Positions 53,260 through 59,315 of a stretch of 64,000 nt of DNA are shown here, in pieces. How positions within the stretch are numbered: the stretch's first letter is position 1; the number at the start of each line of letters is the position of its first letter. This DNA is from an uncultured Candidatus Rokubacteria bacterium (GTDB taxonomy: Bacteria; Methylomirabilota; Methylomirabilia; Rokubacteriales; CSP1-6): NCBI GenBank assembly GCA_963771355.1, contig CAVYTA010000005.1, positions 320,001-384,000 of the forward strand, given 5' to 3'. The notes under the pieces were generated by a model that was given only the letters and a program-made list of their open reading frames with translations, did no database searches and was not told the DNA's origin. A program made the translations under genes and the position numbers.

Positions 53260-54645
53260 TCAGAGCTTGTTGAACCCGTTCAGCGCGGCGACCTTGTAGG
53301 CCTCGGCCAAGGTCGGGTAGTTGAAGACCGTGTCGCGGAAGTAGTCGATGGTGCCGTCCAAGGTCAGCACCGCCTGGCCGATATGGATGATCTCGGACGC
53401 GCCCTCTCCGATCACGTGGACGCCCAGCACCTTCCGCGTCAGCGGATCAAAAAGGATCTTGAGGAAGCCGATGTCGTCCCCGATGATCTGCCCGCGCGCT
53501 AGCTCGGCGTACTTCGCCATGCCGACCTCGTAAGGGATGCGCGCGCGGGTGAGCTCCTGCTCGGTCCGCCCCACCATGGAGATCTCCGGCACGCTGTAGA
53601 CGCCGTAGGGCAGCAGCTCGGGGCGGCTCACGCAGGGAAGGCCAAACATGTGGCAGGCGGCGAGCCGCCCTTGCTCCATGGAGGTCGAGGCGAGCGAGGG
53701 GAAGCCGATCACGTCACCGGCCGCGTAAATGTGCGGGACCGCGGTCTGGCCGGCGCCGTTGACGGCGATCCGTCCCCGCGAGTCGGCCTGGAGGCCCGCT
53801 GCCTCGAGGGCGAGCCCCTCGGTATTGGCCTGCCGGCCCACCGTGTAGAGGAGGGCATCCCCCTGCACGGTCTTGCCGCTTTCGAGGCGCGCCAGCACCC
53901 GGCCGCGCGCGTCGCGCTCGACGCCGATGACGGTCTCGCCGAGGCGGAAGGTCGCCCCCTGACGCCGCATGTGGTACGACAGCGCCTCGATCATCTCCTG
54001 ATCCAGGAAGTCGAGGATGGTAGGCCGCTGGTCGATCACGGTCACCGTGTGCCCCAGGGCGGTGAGCATGGACGCGTATTCCAGGCCGATAACGCCCGCG
54101 CCCACCACGATCGTCTGCTTGCCCAAGCTGTCCACGGTGAGGAGCTGGTCGGAGTCGAAGATGTGACGGCCGTCAAGCGGGATGCCCGCGCTATGCGCGG
54201 GGCGCGTGCCGCAGGCGATGAGGATCCGCTCGGCGGCCAGAGGAACCCCGCCACTGGGTGTCTCGACGACGAGGGTATGCGGATCGGCGAATCGCGCGGT
54301 GCCGTGGACGGTTTCGATGCCGTTGCGCTTGAGCTGGCTGCGGACAATCTCGGTCTCGCGGTCCAGCACGGTTCGCACCCGCGACACGAGGTCCGCCACC
54401 GAGATCCGGTCCTGCAGGGTGTAGTCGCGGCCATAGAAGGTCCGCTGACGGAAGCCCGAGAGATAGAGGATGGCTTCCCGGAGGGCCTTGCTGGGGATGG
54501 TCCCGGTATGGATGCAAACGCCCCCGATCATGTCGCGGCGGTCTACCACGGCCACACGCTTGCCGAGCTTGGCCGCGGCCACCGCCGCCTTTTGGCCGGC
54601 GGGGCCACTTCCGATCACGGCGAGGTCATAGAGGATATCGGGCAT
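53260..54645 (-). CDS. sthA: Soluble pyridine nucleotide transhydrogenase
   Basis: IGSGPAG; GGVCIHTGTIPSK (single Cys, SthA-type); IGFPSLASTSMEQG; FNYPTLAEAYKVAALNG. Confidence 0.92.
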   Translation of the reverse strand: MPDILYDLAVIGSGPAGQKAAVAAAKLGKRVAVVDRRDMIGGVCIHTGTIPSKALREAILYLSGFRQRTFYGRDYTLQDRISVADLVSRVRTVLDRETEIVRSQLKRNGIETVHGTARFADPHTLVVETPSGGVPLAAERILIACGTRPAHSAGIPLDGRHIFDSDQLLTVDSLGKQTIVVGAGVIGLEYASMLTALGHTVTVIDQRPTILDFLDQEMIEALSYHMRRQGATFRLGETVIGVERDARGRVLARLESGKTVQGDALLYTVGRQANTEGLALEAAGLQADSRGRIAVNGAGQTAVPHIYAAGDVIGFPSLASTSMEQGRLAACHMFGLPCVSRPELLPYGVYSVPEISMVGRTEQELTRARIPYEVGMAKYAELARGQIIGDDIGFLKILFDPLTRKVLGVHVIGEGASEIIHIGQAVLTLDGTIDYFRDTVFNYPTLAEAYKVAALNGFNKL

Positions 54646-54722
54646 GGGCATCTCCAAAACGTCGGGTCGCGGCGGATGTTACCAGAATCGCACCGCTTCG
54701 TTTATGAAGGGTCAAGCATCTC

Positions 54723-54751
54723 TTGACAAATCCGACCGGGAAACGTCTAAT
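54723..54751 (+). promoter_or_regulatory. Possible sigma70 promoter for the reductase leader
   Basis: TTGACA-N17-TCTAAT; the -10 lacks the conserved A. Overlaps TCAAG-N5-CTTGA inverted repeat. Confidence 0.45.
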
Positions 54752-54760
54752 ACCGTTGTC

Positions 54761-54832
54761 ATGAGCCGATCTTCCATGGAATCGTGCTGTAAGTGCTTGC
54801 GATGTAAAGCGGAGTGGCTTCTCATAGCGTAG
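54761..54832 (+). CDS. Candidate Cys-rich leader peptide MSRSSMESCCKCLRCKAEWLLIA
   Basis: Four Cys codons within 54785-54805; lies between the putative promoter and a terminator upstream of the sulfite/nitrite reductase. No obvious RBS. Confidence 0.5.
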   Translation: MSRSSMESCCKCLRCKAEWLLIA

Positions 54833-54857
54833 CTTGTGGGCTGAGGCAGATGACCAA

Positions 54858-54887
54858 GCCGGGGAGCCCGTCCCCGGCCTTTGTGTT
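54858..54887 (+). terminator. Intrinsic terminator/attenuator in the 5' leader
   Basis: GCCGGGGA-gcccg-TCCCCGGC followed by CTTTGTGTT, ending about 20 nt before the reductase RBS. Confidence 0.65.
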
Positions 54888-54920
54888 CCTGGGTAGATTC
54901 GCAAGACGAGGGAGATGACC

Positions 54921-56642
54921 ATGGCCGAGGGCAATGGGGTTGTCGTGACGCCGGTGCCGCCCAAGGAAACCAAGGCTCAGCGGGCCGAGCGGCTCAAGGG
55001 CGCGCTCAATCCATGGACGGCCTACGCGGAGATCGAGCGGTTCGCCCGCGATGGCTTCGACTCGATCCCGCCGGAGTGGCTGAATACCTATTTCCGCTGG
55101 TGGGGCCTTTACACCCAGGGCGACGGCATCGGGGCGGTGGGCGGGACCGGCGGCGAGGGCAAGGCGCTCCGCTACTTCATGCAGCGGATTCGCATCCCGA
55201 ACGGCTTCCTCACCGCGACCCAGCTCCGCGCCATCGCCGGTCTCACCGAGCGTCATGCCCGCGGCGTGGCCGACCTCACGGTGCGCCAGAACATCCAGCT
55301 CCACTGGGTGCAGGTGGAGAGCCTGCCCGAGATCGTCTCGACCCTGTCCCGCGTGGGCATCACCACGATCGGCACCTGCGGCGACGTCACCCGCAATATC
55401 ACGGGCTGCCCGGTGGCCGGGGTCGACGCCGACGAGATCGCGGACGCCTCGCCCCTGGTGGAGGCCGCCACCGCCATGCTCAACGGAGCGCCCGAGTTCT
55501 ACAATCTGCCGCGCAAGTTCAAGGTCTCCATCGCCGGCTGCCGTGTGTGGTGCTCGTACCCGGAGATCAACGACGTGGGGCTCACCGCCATCCGCCATCC
55601 CGACTCCGGCGAGACGGGCTTCTCGCTGCGCGTGGGCGGCGGGCTCTCCACCGATCCGCATCTCGCCCCGCGCCTCGACGTCTTCGTGCGCTGGGACCAG
55701 GCCCTGGCGGTGTTGAAGGCGGTGGCCGAGATCTTCCGGGACAGCGATGTCCTCCGCGAGCACCGCGAGAAGGCGCGGCTCAAGTTCCTGTTCCTCCGCC
55801 ATGGCTGGACGGCGGAGCGGTTCCGCGCCGAGATCGAGGCGCGGCTGGGCCACGACCTGGCGCCCGCCGTACCCGAGACGCCGCCGGACGACGTGTATCG
55901 TGACCACGTGGGGCTGCACCAGCAGCGGCAGCCGGGCCTGACCTATGCGGGCTTCCCCATCCTCCGCGGGCGCCTCGATCCGGACACCATGCGGGCGGCG
56001 GCGGACCTCGCCGAGCGCTTCGGCTCCGGCGCGCTCCGCACCACCCACATGCAGAACCTGGTGATCCTCGACGTGCCGCGCGAGCGGGCGGCCGCGCTCA
56101 CCGCGGAAGCAGAGGCTGCCGGACTCGCCCTGTCCGCCTCGCCGTTCCGGCGTGGCACCGTGGCCTGCACGGGCACGGAGTTCTGCAAGATCGCGCTCAC
56201 CGAGACCAAGGGCTTCGCGCGGCACCTGGTGGAGGAGCTGGAGACGCGCCTGCCGGGCTTCGACCGGCACGTGAAGATTCACGTGACAGGCTGCCCGAAT
56301 TCCTGCGGCCAGCACTGGATCGCCGACATCGGGCTCGAGGGCAAGAAGGTGAAGGGCCCGGCCGGTCTCGAAGACGCGTACTACATCTGCGTGGGCGGGG
56401 GGCTGGGCCGGCACGCCTCGGTCGCGCGCCCGGTGGGCTTCCGCGTGCCCGCGCGCGAGACGCCCGCCGCCCTGGAGCGCCTGCTGCGCGCGTACCTGGA
56501 CCTCCGCGCGCCCGGCCAGAGCTTCCGGGACTTCGCGGCCGCACGCACCGACGACGACCTGCGGGCGCTCCTTGCGGGCGGGGCGGTGGGGGCCGTCGCC
56601 CGCGACCTGCCCGTGGCCGCCACCCCTCACAATCTCGAATAG
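54921..56642 (+). CDS. Ferredoxin-dependent sulfite/nitrite reductase (siroheme, 4Fe-4S)
   Basis: LTVRQNIQLH, NLPRKFK, ACTGTEFC...TGCPNSCG; alternative ATG at 54915. Confidence 0.92.
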   Translation: MAEGNGVVVTPVPPKETKAQRAERLKGALNPWTAYAEIERFARDGFDSIPPEWLNTYFRWWGLYTQGDGIGAVGGTGGEGKALRYFMQRIRIPNGFLTATQLRAIAGLTERHARGVADLTVRQNIQLHWVQVESLPEIVSTLSRVGITTIGTCGDVTRNITGCPVAGVDADEIADASPLVEAATAMLNGAPEFYNLPRKFKVSIAGCRVWCSYPEINDVGLTAIRHPDSGETGFSLRVGGGLSTDPHLAPRLDVFVRWDQALAVLKAVAEIFRDSDVLREHREKARLKFLFLRHGWTAERFRAEIEARLGHDLAPAVPETPPDDVYRDHVGLHQQRQPGLTYAGFPILRGRLDPDTMRAAADLAERFGSGALRTTHMQNLVILDVPRERAAALTAEAEAAGLALSASPFRRGTVACTGTEFCKIALTETKGFARHLVEELETRLPGFDRHVKIHVTGCPNSCGQHWIADIGLEGKKVKGPAGLEDAYYICVGGGLGRHASVARPVGFRVPARETPAALERLLRAYLDLRAPGQSFRDFAAARTDDDLRALLAGGAVGAVARDLPVAATPHNLE

Positions 56643-56707
56643 ACCGCAGGAGACGACGATGAGCGCGAGCCTTGGCGATCTCGCCCCCTGATGTCGGAGC
56701 CGGACCG

Positions 56708-57349
56708 GTGAGCGTTCCCTATCCGATCTTTCTCGACCTCGTGGATCGCCCCTGCCTGGTAGCCGGCGGCGGCCCCGTGGCCGAGGCCAAGGTGCGCGGG
56801 CTCCTCGCCGCGGGCGCGCGCGTCACCGTGGTGAGCCCGACGCTCACGCCCGCGTTGACCGCGCTCGCGGCGGAGGGTCATCTCACGCATCAGGCCCGCG
56901 AGTACGCGCCGGGCGATCTCGCGGGCTCTGCGCTGGCCTTCGCCGCCACCGGGGATCGCGCGGTGAGCCGGGCCATCCGGGCGGAGGGCCGGGCGCGCGG
57001 CGTCTGGGTCAACGCGGCCGATGACGCCGAGCACTGCGACTTCCTCCTGCCCGCGGTCTTGCGCCGGGGGGCGCTCGCGGTGGCGGTGTCGAGCGGCGGG
57101 GCCAGCCCCGCGCTCACGCGCGCCGTGCGTGACGAGCTGGAGCGTTATTTCCCGGCCGACTTCGGCGGCTTCGTGGAGGTGGTGGCCGCGCTGCGCCGCG
57201 AGCTCCGCGAGCGGGGCGCGCCGGTCACGGCCGAGGGCTGGCGGTCCGCGCTGGAGGACGAGCTGCGCGCGTGGTCGAACGGGAGCGGGGTGGGCGACGG
57301 GGCGCTCGGCGCCGGCGCGCGCCTCCGCTCGCGGCTGGAGGGCACGTGA
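56708..57349 (+). CDS. Precorrin-2 dehydrogenase/sirohydrochlorin ferrochelatase (CysG N-terminal/SirC-like)
   Basis: YPIFLDL, LVAGGGPVAEAK, VNAADD..CDF, VSSGGASP. Confidence 0.9.
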   Translation: MSVPYPIFLDLVDRPCLVAGGGPVAEAKVRGLLAAGARVTVVSPTLTPALTALAAEGHLTHQAREYAPGDLAGSALAFAATGDRAVSRAIRAEGRARGVWVNAADDAEHCDFLLPAVLRRGALAVAVSSGGASPALTRAVRDELERYFPADFGGFVEVVAALRRELRERGAPVTAEGWRSALEDELRAWSNGSGVGDGALGAGARLRSRLEGT

Positions 57350-58209
57350 TCCGCGGGGAGCGCCCGGGGCCAGCGGAGCACGGGATGCCGGCGGAGCCAG
57401 CGAAGACAGTGGGGCGCGTGGCGCTGGTCGGCGCGGGGCCGGGTGATCCCGGCCTCATGACGGTGCGCGGACTCGCGCTGCTCCAGGCCGCCGAGGCGGT
57501 GGTCTACGATCGCCTCGTCGCGCCCGCGCTGCTCCTCGAGGCGCCACCCGCGGCGGAGCGCGTCTACGTCGGCAAGCGCCCAGGCGCCCACGAGGTGTCC
57601 CAGCCCGAGATCAACGCCATCCTGGTGGCGCTGGCGCGGCGGGGCCTCCAGGTGGTCCGGCTCAAGGGCGGCGATCCCTTCGTGTTCGGGCGGGGCGGCG
57701 AGGAGGCGGCGGCCCTGGCCGCGGCGGGGATTCCCTGCGAGGTGGTCCCCGGCGTGAGCGCGGCGCTGGCCGCCCCCGCCGCCGCCGGCATCCCGGTCAC
57801 CCACCGCGGCGTCGCCGCCTCGTTCGCGGTGATCACGGGCCACGAGGACCCTGCCAAGGGCGAGCCGACGGTGAACTGGAACGCGCTCGCCCACGCGGTG
57901 GATACGCTGGTGGTGCTCATGGGCACGGAGTCGCTGCCCGGTATCGCGCGAACCCTGATCGCGCGGGGCCGCCCCGGCGACACGCCCGTGGCGCTCATCC
58001 ATCGCGGCACGACGCCGGAGCAGGAGACCGTCGTCTCGACGCTCGATGCGCTCGCCGCGCTTTCCGGGCCCGTACCGCTCCCCCCACCCGTCACCGCGGT
58101 CATCGGCGACGTGGTGTCGCTGCGCGCCCACCTCGGCATCGCGCGTCAGGATAGTGATACCGTGTCTTTCCACCCTGATGCGCTCGTGACGCGTATCGAA
58201 AGGATGTGA
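57346..58209 (+). CDS. cobA: Uroporphyrinogen-III C-methyltransferase
   Basis: LVGAGPGDPGLMT, YDRLV, RLKGGDPFVFGRGGEE, GIPVTHR. Confidence 0.93.
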   Translation: MIRGERPGPAEHGMPAEPAKTVGRVALVGAGPGDPGLMTVRGLALLQAAEAVVYDRLVAPALLLEAPPAAERVYVGKRPGAHEVSQPEINAILVALARRGLQVVRLKGGDPFVFGRGGEEAAALAAAGIPCEVVPGVSAALAAPAAAGIPVTHRGVAASFAVITGHEDPAKGEPTVNWNALAHAVDTLVVLMGTESLPGIARTLIARGRPGDTPVALIHRGTTPEQETVVSTLDALAALSGPVPLPPPVTAVIGDVVSLRAHLGIARQDSDTVSFHPDALVTRIERM

Positions 58210-58211
58210 CC

Positions 58212-59315
58212 ATGAACCGTCGACAGCTCCTCAAGCTCGGCTTCGTCGCCAGCGGCACCTTCGCTGTTGGAGGGCTCGCGCGGCTCGGCACGCGGACGGC
58301 CTCGGCTCAGATCGGCTCCGTGCCCACGGTGGACCGGCTGGTCCTCACCAATGTCGTGGACAATATCTACGACGTCTTCGCCAAGGCGGGCCGGCTCGAC
58401 ACCATCACGGTGCAGCGCACGCCGGTGGGGCCCGCCCCGCTGCTCGCCGAGCACGGGCTCGCGTATCACATCGAGTCGCATCGCGGCGCCGAGCAGCGCC
58501 AGATCCTGCTGGACTTCAGCCTCACCGACATCAACCTGTTCAACAACTACCAGTCGCTCAAGGTGGATCCCTACGCGGCGGACGCCCTCATTCTGAGCCA
58601 CGGCCACCGGGACCACTACGGCGCGCTACCGACGCTGGCGCGGCTGGGGCAGGGGAAGTTCAGGACCGGCACCACCGTGTACGCGGGCGGCGAGGACACT
58701 TTCTGCGCGCGGGTGGTGGTGACCAACGCCGGGAACCTCGACCAGGGTCGGCTCGACGCGCCGGCGCTGGAGGCCCTGGGCCTGCGGGTCGCGCTCGCCA
58801 AGCAGCCGACGATCGTGGCCGGCCATGCCTTCACCTCGGGCCAGATCGCCCGTGTCACCGACTTCGAGCGGCCGCCGGGGTCGGCGCGGCTCGTCGCCGG
58901 GCCGCCGGACTCGGCCTGCGCGGTCACGCATTTCGGGCTCACCCAGGTGGTGGCCAATCCGGGCGAGCTGGTGCCCGATACCTTCCAGGGGGAGCATGCG
59001 ACCGCCTTCCACGTCCGGGACCGCGGACTGGTGGTGATCACCTCCTGCGGTCATGCCGGCGTGATCAACTCGGTGCGGCAGGTCCAGAAGGCTACCGGGA
59101 TCGACAAGGTCCACGCCGTCGTGGGTGGCTTCCATCTCGCCCCCGCCTCCGATGAAGTGGTGGCCAGGACGGTCGCCGCCTTCAAGGCCATCAACCCCGA
59201 CTACATCATTCCCATGCACTGCACCGGGCTCAACACCATCTTCGCCGTCCAGCGCGAGCTGCCGGCCAAGCTCGTGATGCCCTCGACCGGCACCCGGGTG
59301 CTCTTCGGCGCCTGA
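58212..59315 (+). CDS. Tat-exported metallo-beta-lactamase-fold hydrolase
   Basis: MNRRQLLK twin-arginine leader; AEHGL, LSHGHRDHYG, SCGHAG, GGFHL, PMHCTG. Confidence 0.88.
   Translation: MNRRQLLKLGFVASGTFAVGGLARLGTRTASAQIGSVPTVDRLVLTNVVDNIYDVFAKAGRLDTITVQRTPVGPAPLLAEHGLAYHIESHRGAEQRQILLDFSLTDINLFNNYQSLKVDPYAADALILSHGHRDHYGALPTLARLGQGKFRTGTTVYAGGEDTFCARVVVTNAGNLDQGRLDAPALEALGLRVALAKQPTIVAGHAFTSGQIARVTDFERPPGSARLVAGPPDSACAVTHFGLTQVVANPGELVPDTFQGEHATAFHVRDRGLVVITSCGHAGVINSVRQVQKATGIDKVHAVVGGFHLAPASDEVVARTVAAFKAINPDYIIPMHCTGLNTIFAVQRELPAKLVMPSTGTRVLFGA

Follow-up and report, generated by a model that had tools for sequence, protein, structure and literature searches.

The window, by which we mean the whole 64,000-nucleotide stretch of DNA that was analysed, carries on its forward strand a gene for a siroheme-dependent sulfite/nitrite reductase (sir; 54921..56642), assigned by profile and structure-relative matches, followed by a siroheme synthase N-terminal domain (cysG-N; 56672..57349; TIGR01470 above cut-off) and a uroporphyrinogen-III C-methyltransferase (cobA/cysG-C; 57319..58209, with a putative start; TIGR01469 above cut-off). 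A metallo-β-lactamase-fold protein with a Tat-like N-terminus (58206–59315) begins at the cobA stop. On the reverse strand, the divergent sthA gene for a soluble transhydrogenase (53260..54645; NF003585 above cut-off) is a neighbour outside the device described here. A Shine–Dalgarno-like GAGGGAG (54908–54914, forward strand, by direct reading) precedes sir, and its spacing favours the ATG at 54921 over 54915; relatives have GTG at the position of 54921. The segment 54300–55079 is covered with no differences by one soil-metagenome DNA contig, which is possibly not independent of the source of the window.

The features of the leader upstream of sir all lie on the forward strand. The predicted promoter of the operon consists of a −35 hexamer TTGACA (54723..54728), which also heads the orthologous short-leader, long-ORF and leader-free loci considered below, and a degenerate −10 element TCTAAT (54746..54751) at a spacing of 17 nucleotides, with TAATAC (54748–54753) as an alternative −10, all by direct reading. 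From the promoter position, the start site is predicted at about 54757–54761. The promoter scan called no promoter at 54723–54751, because the −10 element is without an A at position 2; in the close relatives L002, L003 and L076 there is one extra base at the −10, which reads TACTAA. An inverted repeat, GTCAAG-N5-CTTGAC (54711–54727), places −35-like hexamers back to back in the sir and the divergent sthA directions.

The promoter is followed by an ORF of 23 amino acids (54761..54832; ATG at 54761, TAG at 54830–54832), predicted to be near-leaderless, which contains the predicted sensing codons TGC TGT AAG TGC TTG CGA TGT (C-C-K-C-L-R-C; 54785..54805), with a CGA-TG core that is invariant in the clade. 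A first candidate antiterminator strand (54812..54829) spans the last codons and could pair with 54858–54868, its core GGCTTCTC at 54816–54823 meeting GGGGAGCC at 54861–54868 on the hairpin side, as read directly. A second candidate strand, from duplex computation, lies just past the stop codon (54833..54847); 54836–54842 within it are able to pair with the hairpin loop, and its GGC (54845–54847) is a probable remnant of an RNA motif present in relatives. The leader ORF ends 25 nucleotides before an intrinsic-terminator-like hairpin (54858–54878; −16.8 kcal/mol), which together with the T-rich tail CTTTGTGTT occupies 54858..54887; the terminator scan gave two sites in 1.5 kb, including this hairpin, against 0.5 ± 0.7 in shuffles. 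All of the features listed in the first-pass annotation of this DNA are found where it had placed them, although the −10 element of its promoter is degenerate and was not called by the scan.

An Rfam scan of the whole window gave 0 matches at the gathering score, and at E ≤ 5 only chance matches far below threshold. In the whole genome of the window (G000), a Cys-rich short ORF, defined as 10–35 codons with at least three Cys or at least two TGT codons and ending 12–48 nucleotides upstream of the terminator, was found upstream of two of the 89 terminator-like sites, and only that of the window was preceded by TTGAC.

The reductase is present in 28 of 61 related genomes, and the named relatives with an orthologous leader are nearly all Candidatus Rokubacteria or Methylomirabilota. 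A short-leader set drawn from all six other reductase-bearing genomes of the genus and from metagenome contigs comprised 15 loci, 13 of which are distinct, including the window and one near-copy. The short loci form one side of a branch with an SH-aLRT value of 97 in a quick sir tree (unrooted and midpoint-drawn, with 107 rows; 11 loci with short or unparsed sir sequences were left out). On this tree, the leader-free loci, from which both the ORF and the hairpin are missing, require four to six changes. In 12 of the 13 distinct loci there is an ORF of 17–23 codons, in frame with the Cys codons and with a stop 24–32 nucleotides before the hairpin; the sole exception, L002, has a 2-nucleotide insertion and no in-frame start, and belongs to an assembly in which frameshifts split four of the 13 genes matched by tblastn; a search of four DNA runs for this break gave no sequence across it. 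The hairpin and T-rich tail are present, by sequence pattern, in all 13, several of the tails being stronger than that of the window. The ORF starts 35–39 nucleotides past TTGACA in 11 of the 13 short loci, and the transcript is therefore predicted to be leaderless or nearly so. The start site is thus predicted at or just before the ORF rather than downstream of it, and the lack of a clear ribosome-binding site, which had been entered as a caveat, fits near-leaderless initiation.

Cys codons make up 28 of the 253 codons (11%) of the short ORFs, compared with 0.8% genome-wide, an enrichment of about 14-fold. TGT accounts for 25 of 32 Cys codons in the short loci versus 11% genome-wide; for comparison, the sir genes of 46 orthologous loci have TGT at 17 of their 408 Cys codons. 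The core Cys codon is preceded by CGA in 13 of 13 loci, against a genome-wide frequency of 5.7%, and the codon after CGA is TGT in 12 of 13. Most short loci have two Cys codons, the ORF of L025 has a single one, and at least two consecutive Cys codons occur only in the window, L075 and L002 (3/13), so that tandem codons are not a conserved trait. The positions of the Cys codons shift between species and the CxxC spacing is not always kept, while the TGT bias persists; this turnover and loose spacing fit codon counting rather than metal binding. The conservation of Cys codons across leaders expected from the first-pass annotation is thus found as enrichment, with frame and stop kept in 12 of 13 loci and with shifting positions. 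The ARAGORN list for the genome of the window contains one tRNA-Cys(GCA) and no tRNA-Arg(UCG), and TGT and CGA are therefore presumably read by wobble, which would slow their decoding. Starvation can slow synonymous codons unequally, as described for serine (PMC3862929).

These features suggest that the leader is probably a ribosome-mediated transcription attenuator sensing charged tRNA-Cys before the sir–siroheme operon. Translation would begin with a ribosome entering at the 5′ end of the transcript or close to it. When cysteine is sufficient, the ribosome would run on to the TAG at 54830 and there mask both candidate antiterminator strands, so that the hairpin could fold and end transcription near 54885. 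When cysteine is short, the ribosome would stall at the K-C-x-R-C codons, mainly at 54794 and 54803; slow wobble decoding is predicted there for the TGT and CGA codons. Such a stall would leave the last codons and the post-stop strand available to capture the 5′ arm of the hairpin, and RNA polymerase would read into sir-cysG-cobA. We infer the start site, the translation, the stalling and the switch, as well as the direction of evolution discussed below, from sequence comparison. Classical leader-peptide attenuators are trpL, hisL, leuL, thrL and pheL. Like these, the window leader has a short ORF with codons for the end product, a stop just before a terminator and an antiterminator candidate in the last codons; unlike them, it would sense cysteine, would be near-leaderless, and would have a weak or distributed antiterminator and a probable origin from a folded protein.

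The same coupling of ribosome and terminator might instead answer to another signal, with a K-x-x-R-C nascent peptide or a slow CGA codon arresting the ribosome in response to metal, sulfide, redox state or general translation speed. Of the 13 short peptides, 12 have the K and all have the R, so that both are more conserved than any second Cys; L080, with Trp in place of the cysteine of R-C, still has CGATG, and the probable ancestor is a metal-binding fold. Such a cue is nevertheless unlikely, as new Cys codons appear at other positions and are nearly always TGT, all other residues vary freely, and the genes under the leader belong to sulfur assimilation.

Poly-Cys leaders before sir were also observed in a second lineage (L092, L106, L107, L115, L118, L120, L123, L125, L128, L131, L132, L143, L148 and L149). 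These 14 metagenome loci, in which the leader lies about 250 nucleotides before sir, is near-leaderless and is TGT-biased, were used as a comparison set. They resemble the window in the downstream gene, the near-leaderless ORF, the TGT bias, similar offsets and an AAGGC..GAC..GCC-like string ahead of the terminator, and differ in having three to six clustered Cys codons where parsed, a long near-perfect antiterminator in the last codons and no sign of a zinc-ribbon ancestor.

The RNA switch of the proposed cysteine attenuator was examined by duplex and folding computations. In the window, the duplex between the last 21 nucleotides of the ORF and the hairpin arm has an energy of −16.5 kcal/mol (p = 0.047, 1000 shuffles), which is borderline for one sequence, and the 15 nucleotides past the stop give p = 0.21. 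Across the clade, duplex energies with the hairpin arm, computed in a sliding window, are strongest over the last codons (z = −4.5, 11 short loci), as they are at a similar offset in the comparison set (z = −8.9, 10 loci), and composition-matched shuffles of 13 loci gave combined z values of −4.2 for the last 21 nucleotides and −3.7 for the post-stop 15 nucleotides; such z values are overstated, because the loci are kin and not independent trials. In 12 of 13 loci, more of the hairpin arm is sequestered when the ribosome stalls at the first Cys codon than when it stands at the stop, a comparison made without a null and partly a length effect. The antiterminator within the ORF, as drawn in the first-pass annotation, agrees with the complementarity peak across the clade, but covariation of this strand was not seen, its own arm being better than foreign arms in only five of 11 loci, and the whole-leader fold does not exceed shuffles. 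As the main antiterminator, the post-stop strand was rejected, having failed in the short loci against shuffles (mean z = −0.05, 11 loci) and swaps.

In whole-leader folding with ribosome constraints, a check proposed with the original claim, avoidance of the terminator becomes less costly under a stall in 10 of the 13 loci, but the gain is not above that in shuffles (mean z = −0.05; −1.2 in six loci of the comparison set). In the window, the terminator makes up 0.96–0.98 of the ensemble under every ribosome mask, and the penalty for avoiding it is 8.6 kcal/mol with the ribosome at the stop versus 4.3–5.9 kcal/mol at the Cys stalls. All folding models favour the terminator at equilibrium, so that any switch would need to be a kinetic one. 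In the window, strand 1 is tied up in a local hairpin when the ribosome stalls at the first Cys codon, and therefore the later Cys codons, which are the part conserved in relatives, would matter most. No conserved 1:2 (pause/protector) hairpin was found beyond chance (mean z = −0.14), in a test that is weak because the poly-Cys comparison set likewise yielded none. None of the contigs from three metatranscriptome runs extends to the Cys codons or the hairpin. The geometry is compatible with attenuation, short of proving the switch structure, and the cysteine-responsive attenuator of the first-pass annotation is partly supported, by conservation, codon bias and gene context but not by a switch above chance in whole-leader folding.

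A leader that responds to cysteine through sir translation or Rho, as in mycobacteria, instead of through the hairpin appears highly improbable. The mycobacterial polycysteine leaderless sORF that was dissected is described as translational, relieving the sequestration of a Shine–Dalgarno site (10.1101/834739), and the T tail of the window hairpin is weak; against this, the hairpin ends about 30 nucleotides ahead of the Shine–Dalgarno site, and the hairpin with its tail is kept in all 13 short loci, several with stronger tails. According to PMC1262725, no conserved terminator hairpins were found upstream of the mycobacterial cys operons. The parallel to Actinobacteria that had been drawn is imperfect, since the tested mycobacterial case, as described, is translational and does not work by way of an intrinsic terminator. 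As presented in these sources, the mycobacterial sORFs share with the window leader a leaderless Cys-codon ORF before cysteine or sulfur genes and stalling as the sensor, for which two Cys codons can suffice, and differ in having consecutive Cys runs where the window clade has K-C-x-R-C.

Another precedent for the proposed cysteine attenuator in its logic is the uORFC-8-2 motif of Rhodobacterales cysS, for which a Cys uORF (two Cys) and an intrinsic terminator were predicted (PMC8632094). Both combine a Cys-codon uORF with a terminator and a predicted read-through on stalling; uORFC-8-2, as described there, differs in preceding a cysteinyl-tRNA synthetase gene in Alphaproteobacteria and in its tandem, mostly UGC, Cys codons, with no zinc-ribbon link seen in that description. 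The supplement of PMC8632094 holds further uORF candidates that may bear on novelty. The logic of cysteine sensing by a leader ORF with a terminator is known (predicted for cysS, PMC8632094; translational in mycobacteria), and novelty seems to lie in the origin and anatomy of the leader. In a search of the literature on Rokubacteria or zinc-ribbon leaders, which mostly covered journals open without subscription, the element was not described.

In many relatives, the interval from the same promoter to the same terminator base holds a longer ORF, of about 60–78 codons, which encodes two CxxC knuckles and in which N-A-I-L and K-C-x-R-C-K-x-W are invariant. A search of 251 genomes of the phylum found it in 82, which belong to several families and reach beyond the order; it was not found in the genome of the window or in the seven other genomes of its genus. 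The predicted structure is all-β and zinc-ribbon-like (pLDDT 86.7), with the four conserved Cys in a β-ribbon. None of six long-ORF sequences matched a Pfam family above cut-off, and fold searches with the model gave no match at E ≤ 0.001 (best Z 3.2), which is no proof of a new fold. At E ≤ 0.001, 130 cluster representatives match the long ORF, some of them outside the phylum, with Candidatus Manganitrophus among the sources, and four of 17 family members have weak matches (E = 3e-5 to 3e-3) to PHROG 6417, 'translational regulator'. A GGC-purines-GTC..GAC-purines-GCC motif overlaps the terminator base in 65 of 69 distinct long loci and in none of the 13 short loci; in the genome of the window, the full pattern occurs at control level only (8 versus 13).

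Leader peptides are usually taken as unconstrained. The leader sensor in many relatives appears, from the structural model and codon counts, to be a conserved folded protein with split Cys codon use. In 35 representative long loci, TGT is used in three of 70 Cys codons of the first CxxC versus 42 of 70 of the second, which lies 12–15 codons before the stop. This contrast within one gene is the strongest sign that the long ORF would itself be a leader. Some loci speak against this. The long ORF is intact and the motif and terminator are absent in L008/L032, L038, L048 and L063, which arose four separate times on the tree, and TGT is retained in two of these four. In L155–157, the ORF, motif and terminator are kept and all four Cys codons are TGC; the ORF there starts a few bases past the previous gene (an ABC permease in L155). 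At L145:1330–1480, a promoter is followed directly by the RNA motif and terminator with no ORF; this may be an attenuator that no longer works, or it may mean that the motif acts together with a trans factor or ligand. In L155–L159 (Methylomirabilales-like, families f10 and f11), the long ORF, a motif variant (GTTC/GAAC in L155–157) and a terminator were observed before sir, with a rhodanese or a second siroheme reductase behind it.

The Com protein of phage Mu is a zinc finger that binds an RNA hairpin in the mom message and activates mom translation (PMC6483171). The modelled long-ORF product resembles Com as a small four-Cys zinc protein encoded just before an RNA hairpin and in the weak similarity to PHROG 6417; the motif described as selected by Com consists of GAGNNCC repeats, whereas that of the relatives is GGC..GTC/GAC..GCC. 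A Com-like zinc ribbon may bind this motif in the long-ORF relatives. Such a protein–RNA mechanism cannot use the long ORF in the genome of the window, because none was found there, and the window peptide has no first CxxC, so that the fold is not possible. A distant zinc-ribbon homologue is followed by a similar motif and a terminator-like hairpin at L174:1456–1790 (G152:C12), behind which lies a weak match to a phage head-maturation protease (E = 2e-5). No close relative of the long ORF or motif was found in viral contigs, and none for P0058 in GenBank phages; the phage context comes from one locus, because two alignments were too divergent for the search method.

These relatives bear on another explanation, in which the invariant CGATG would be a nucleic-acid site, namely a second operator, a polymerase pause or the site of a trans-acting RNA-binding antiterminator, and the ORF would be incidental. 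CGATG does not vary even at synonymous positions and is similar to the promoter core CCGAT; the all-β zinc-ribbon-like model (pLDDT 86.7), the PHROG 6417 matches in four of 17 family members, the joint loss of motif and long ORF in the short clade and the distant homologue before a similar hairpin and a phage head-protease-like gene all point in this direction. We regard it as very unlikely, since the folded protein is absent from the genome of the window and seven other genomes of the genus, the full motif is found in none of the 13 short loci, and a binding site leaves the frame, the stop and the shifting TGT codons unexplained. The IHF-like string flagged in the first-pass annotation has its TTG kept in only four of 13 short loci, and an IHF site was rejected because it is not conserved among them.

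Returning to the cysteine attenuator, its peptide can be compared with the long form. The short peptides scored better than their own shuffles against the C-terminal profile of the long ORF at p < 0.05 in 11 of 13 cases (p = 0.002 for the window), and one short subgroup gives a gapless alignment to the long form, in which a Cys codon stands opposite the Trp of the long form. By sequence similarity, the window ORF is a probable truncated homologue of the C-terminal half of the approximately 60-residue zinc-ribbon ORF; it retains the C-terminal knuckle only, and the two-knuckle fold is not possible. The long form is found on both sides of the short clade in the unrooted tree and in other orders, and truncation is therefore the more parsimonious direction. 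In the short clade, the long ORF and the full motif have disappeared jointly.

An origin in a longer gene would also be expected if the ORF were a decaying zinc-ribbon remnant, with the hairpin constitutively dampening read-through or stabilizing the transcript and control residing at the promoter. This is consistent with the whole-fold switch not exceeding shuffles, with the one locus that is out of frame, with a conserved promoter-spacer motif as an alternative control point, and with the dispensability of the device, given that 13 of the sir loci on the tree are leader-free. Decay alone is nonetheless quite unlikely, as 12 of the 13 loci retain the start, the frame and the stop although their peptides have little else in common, and the roughly 14-fold enrichment of Cys codons, gained at new sites and biased to TGT, is not expected to be kept by decay.

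The promoter-spacer motif (54726..54746), with the core YCGAY, is a putative Rrf2-type operator. It was compared in 85 promoters picked by a pattern that required the core, and the conservation of YCGAY is therefore partly by construction; 54726–54746 is the top PWM match in the genome of the window. A second, Rrf2-type layer of control is thus possible on the strength of this motif. A CCGA..GTCGG palindrome like the spacer motif precedes one Rrf2 gene of this genome, and another Rrf2 gene has a cysK/M gene immediately behind it (G000:C6, near 1359750 and 1149996). By eye, no similar leader was found at two other cysK/M-type genes or at the Rrf2 gene heading a third.

Combining the long and the short forms, we tentatively suggest that in Methylomirabilota a folded, Com-like zinc-ribbon gene might double as a cysteine-attenuator leader, with its C-terminal CxxC tuned to TGT for stalling and its protein perhaps binding the GGC..GTC/GAC..GCC motif, and that fold and motif might have been lost together in the genus of the window to leave a minimal leader peptide. 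If so, an attenuator would have been caught evolving out of a protein-coding regulator gene, which would provide a traceable route for the origin of attenuators, the clade of 13 loci showing the reduction to about 20 codons. Small 'hypothetical zinc-ribbon' genes before terminators may then be cis-sensors, and a β-carbonic-anhydrase-family gene would be tied to the same control.

The best solved relative of the window reductase is PDB entry 1ZJ8 (E = 2e-99), with which the K-x-K motif and the Tyr/Cys pair align, RKFK lying over RKYK, whereas plant nitrite reductase has RKWN (K-x-N) at the motif position. The K-x-K motif is taken to be diagnostic for sulfite reductase. The 1ZJ8 enzyme is a sulfite reductase by the title cited in PMC8092218. 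From these alignments, the window reductase is most likely a ferredoxin-type sulfite reductase of the NirA/SirA type. Sulfite had been named as the substrate as a consequence of the attenuator; it is likely on independent grounds, because of the 1ZJ8 motif match and the sulfur-assimilation genes behind the leaders of relatives. The long-ORF leader precedes sir in 41 of 43 loci, PAPS reductase in one and siroheme synthase in one. If the attenuator reading is true, the operon would be marked as serving the assimilation of sulfur, not nitrogen, in this lineage of soil bacteria, which is known through metagenome-assembled genomes.

In family f4 (L164–L170 and L173), the long ORF, motif and terminator were observed before a β-carbonic-anhydrase-family gene, which has a Pfam Pro_CA match on L166 and is read in frame in L166, L167, L170 and L173; in L169 it comes after sir. 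This gene possibly represents a sulfur source of the COS-hydrolase type. No PAPS-reductase match was found in the genome of the window; a Sat–APS kinase-like gene was observed in a sulfotransferase-like context (G000; L183). In L013, L017, L026 and L030, the reading frame of sir is open far upstream (about 800–1000 amino acids), with an apparent fusion of sir to an ATP-sulfurylase-like domain.
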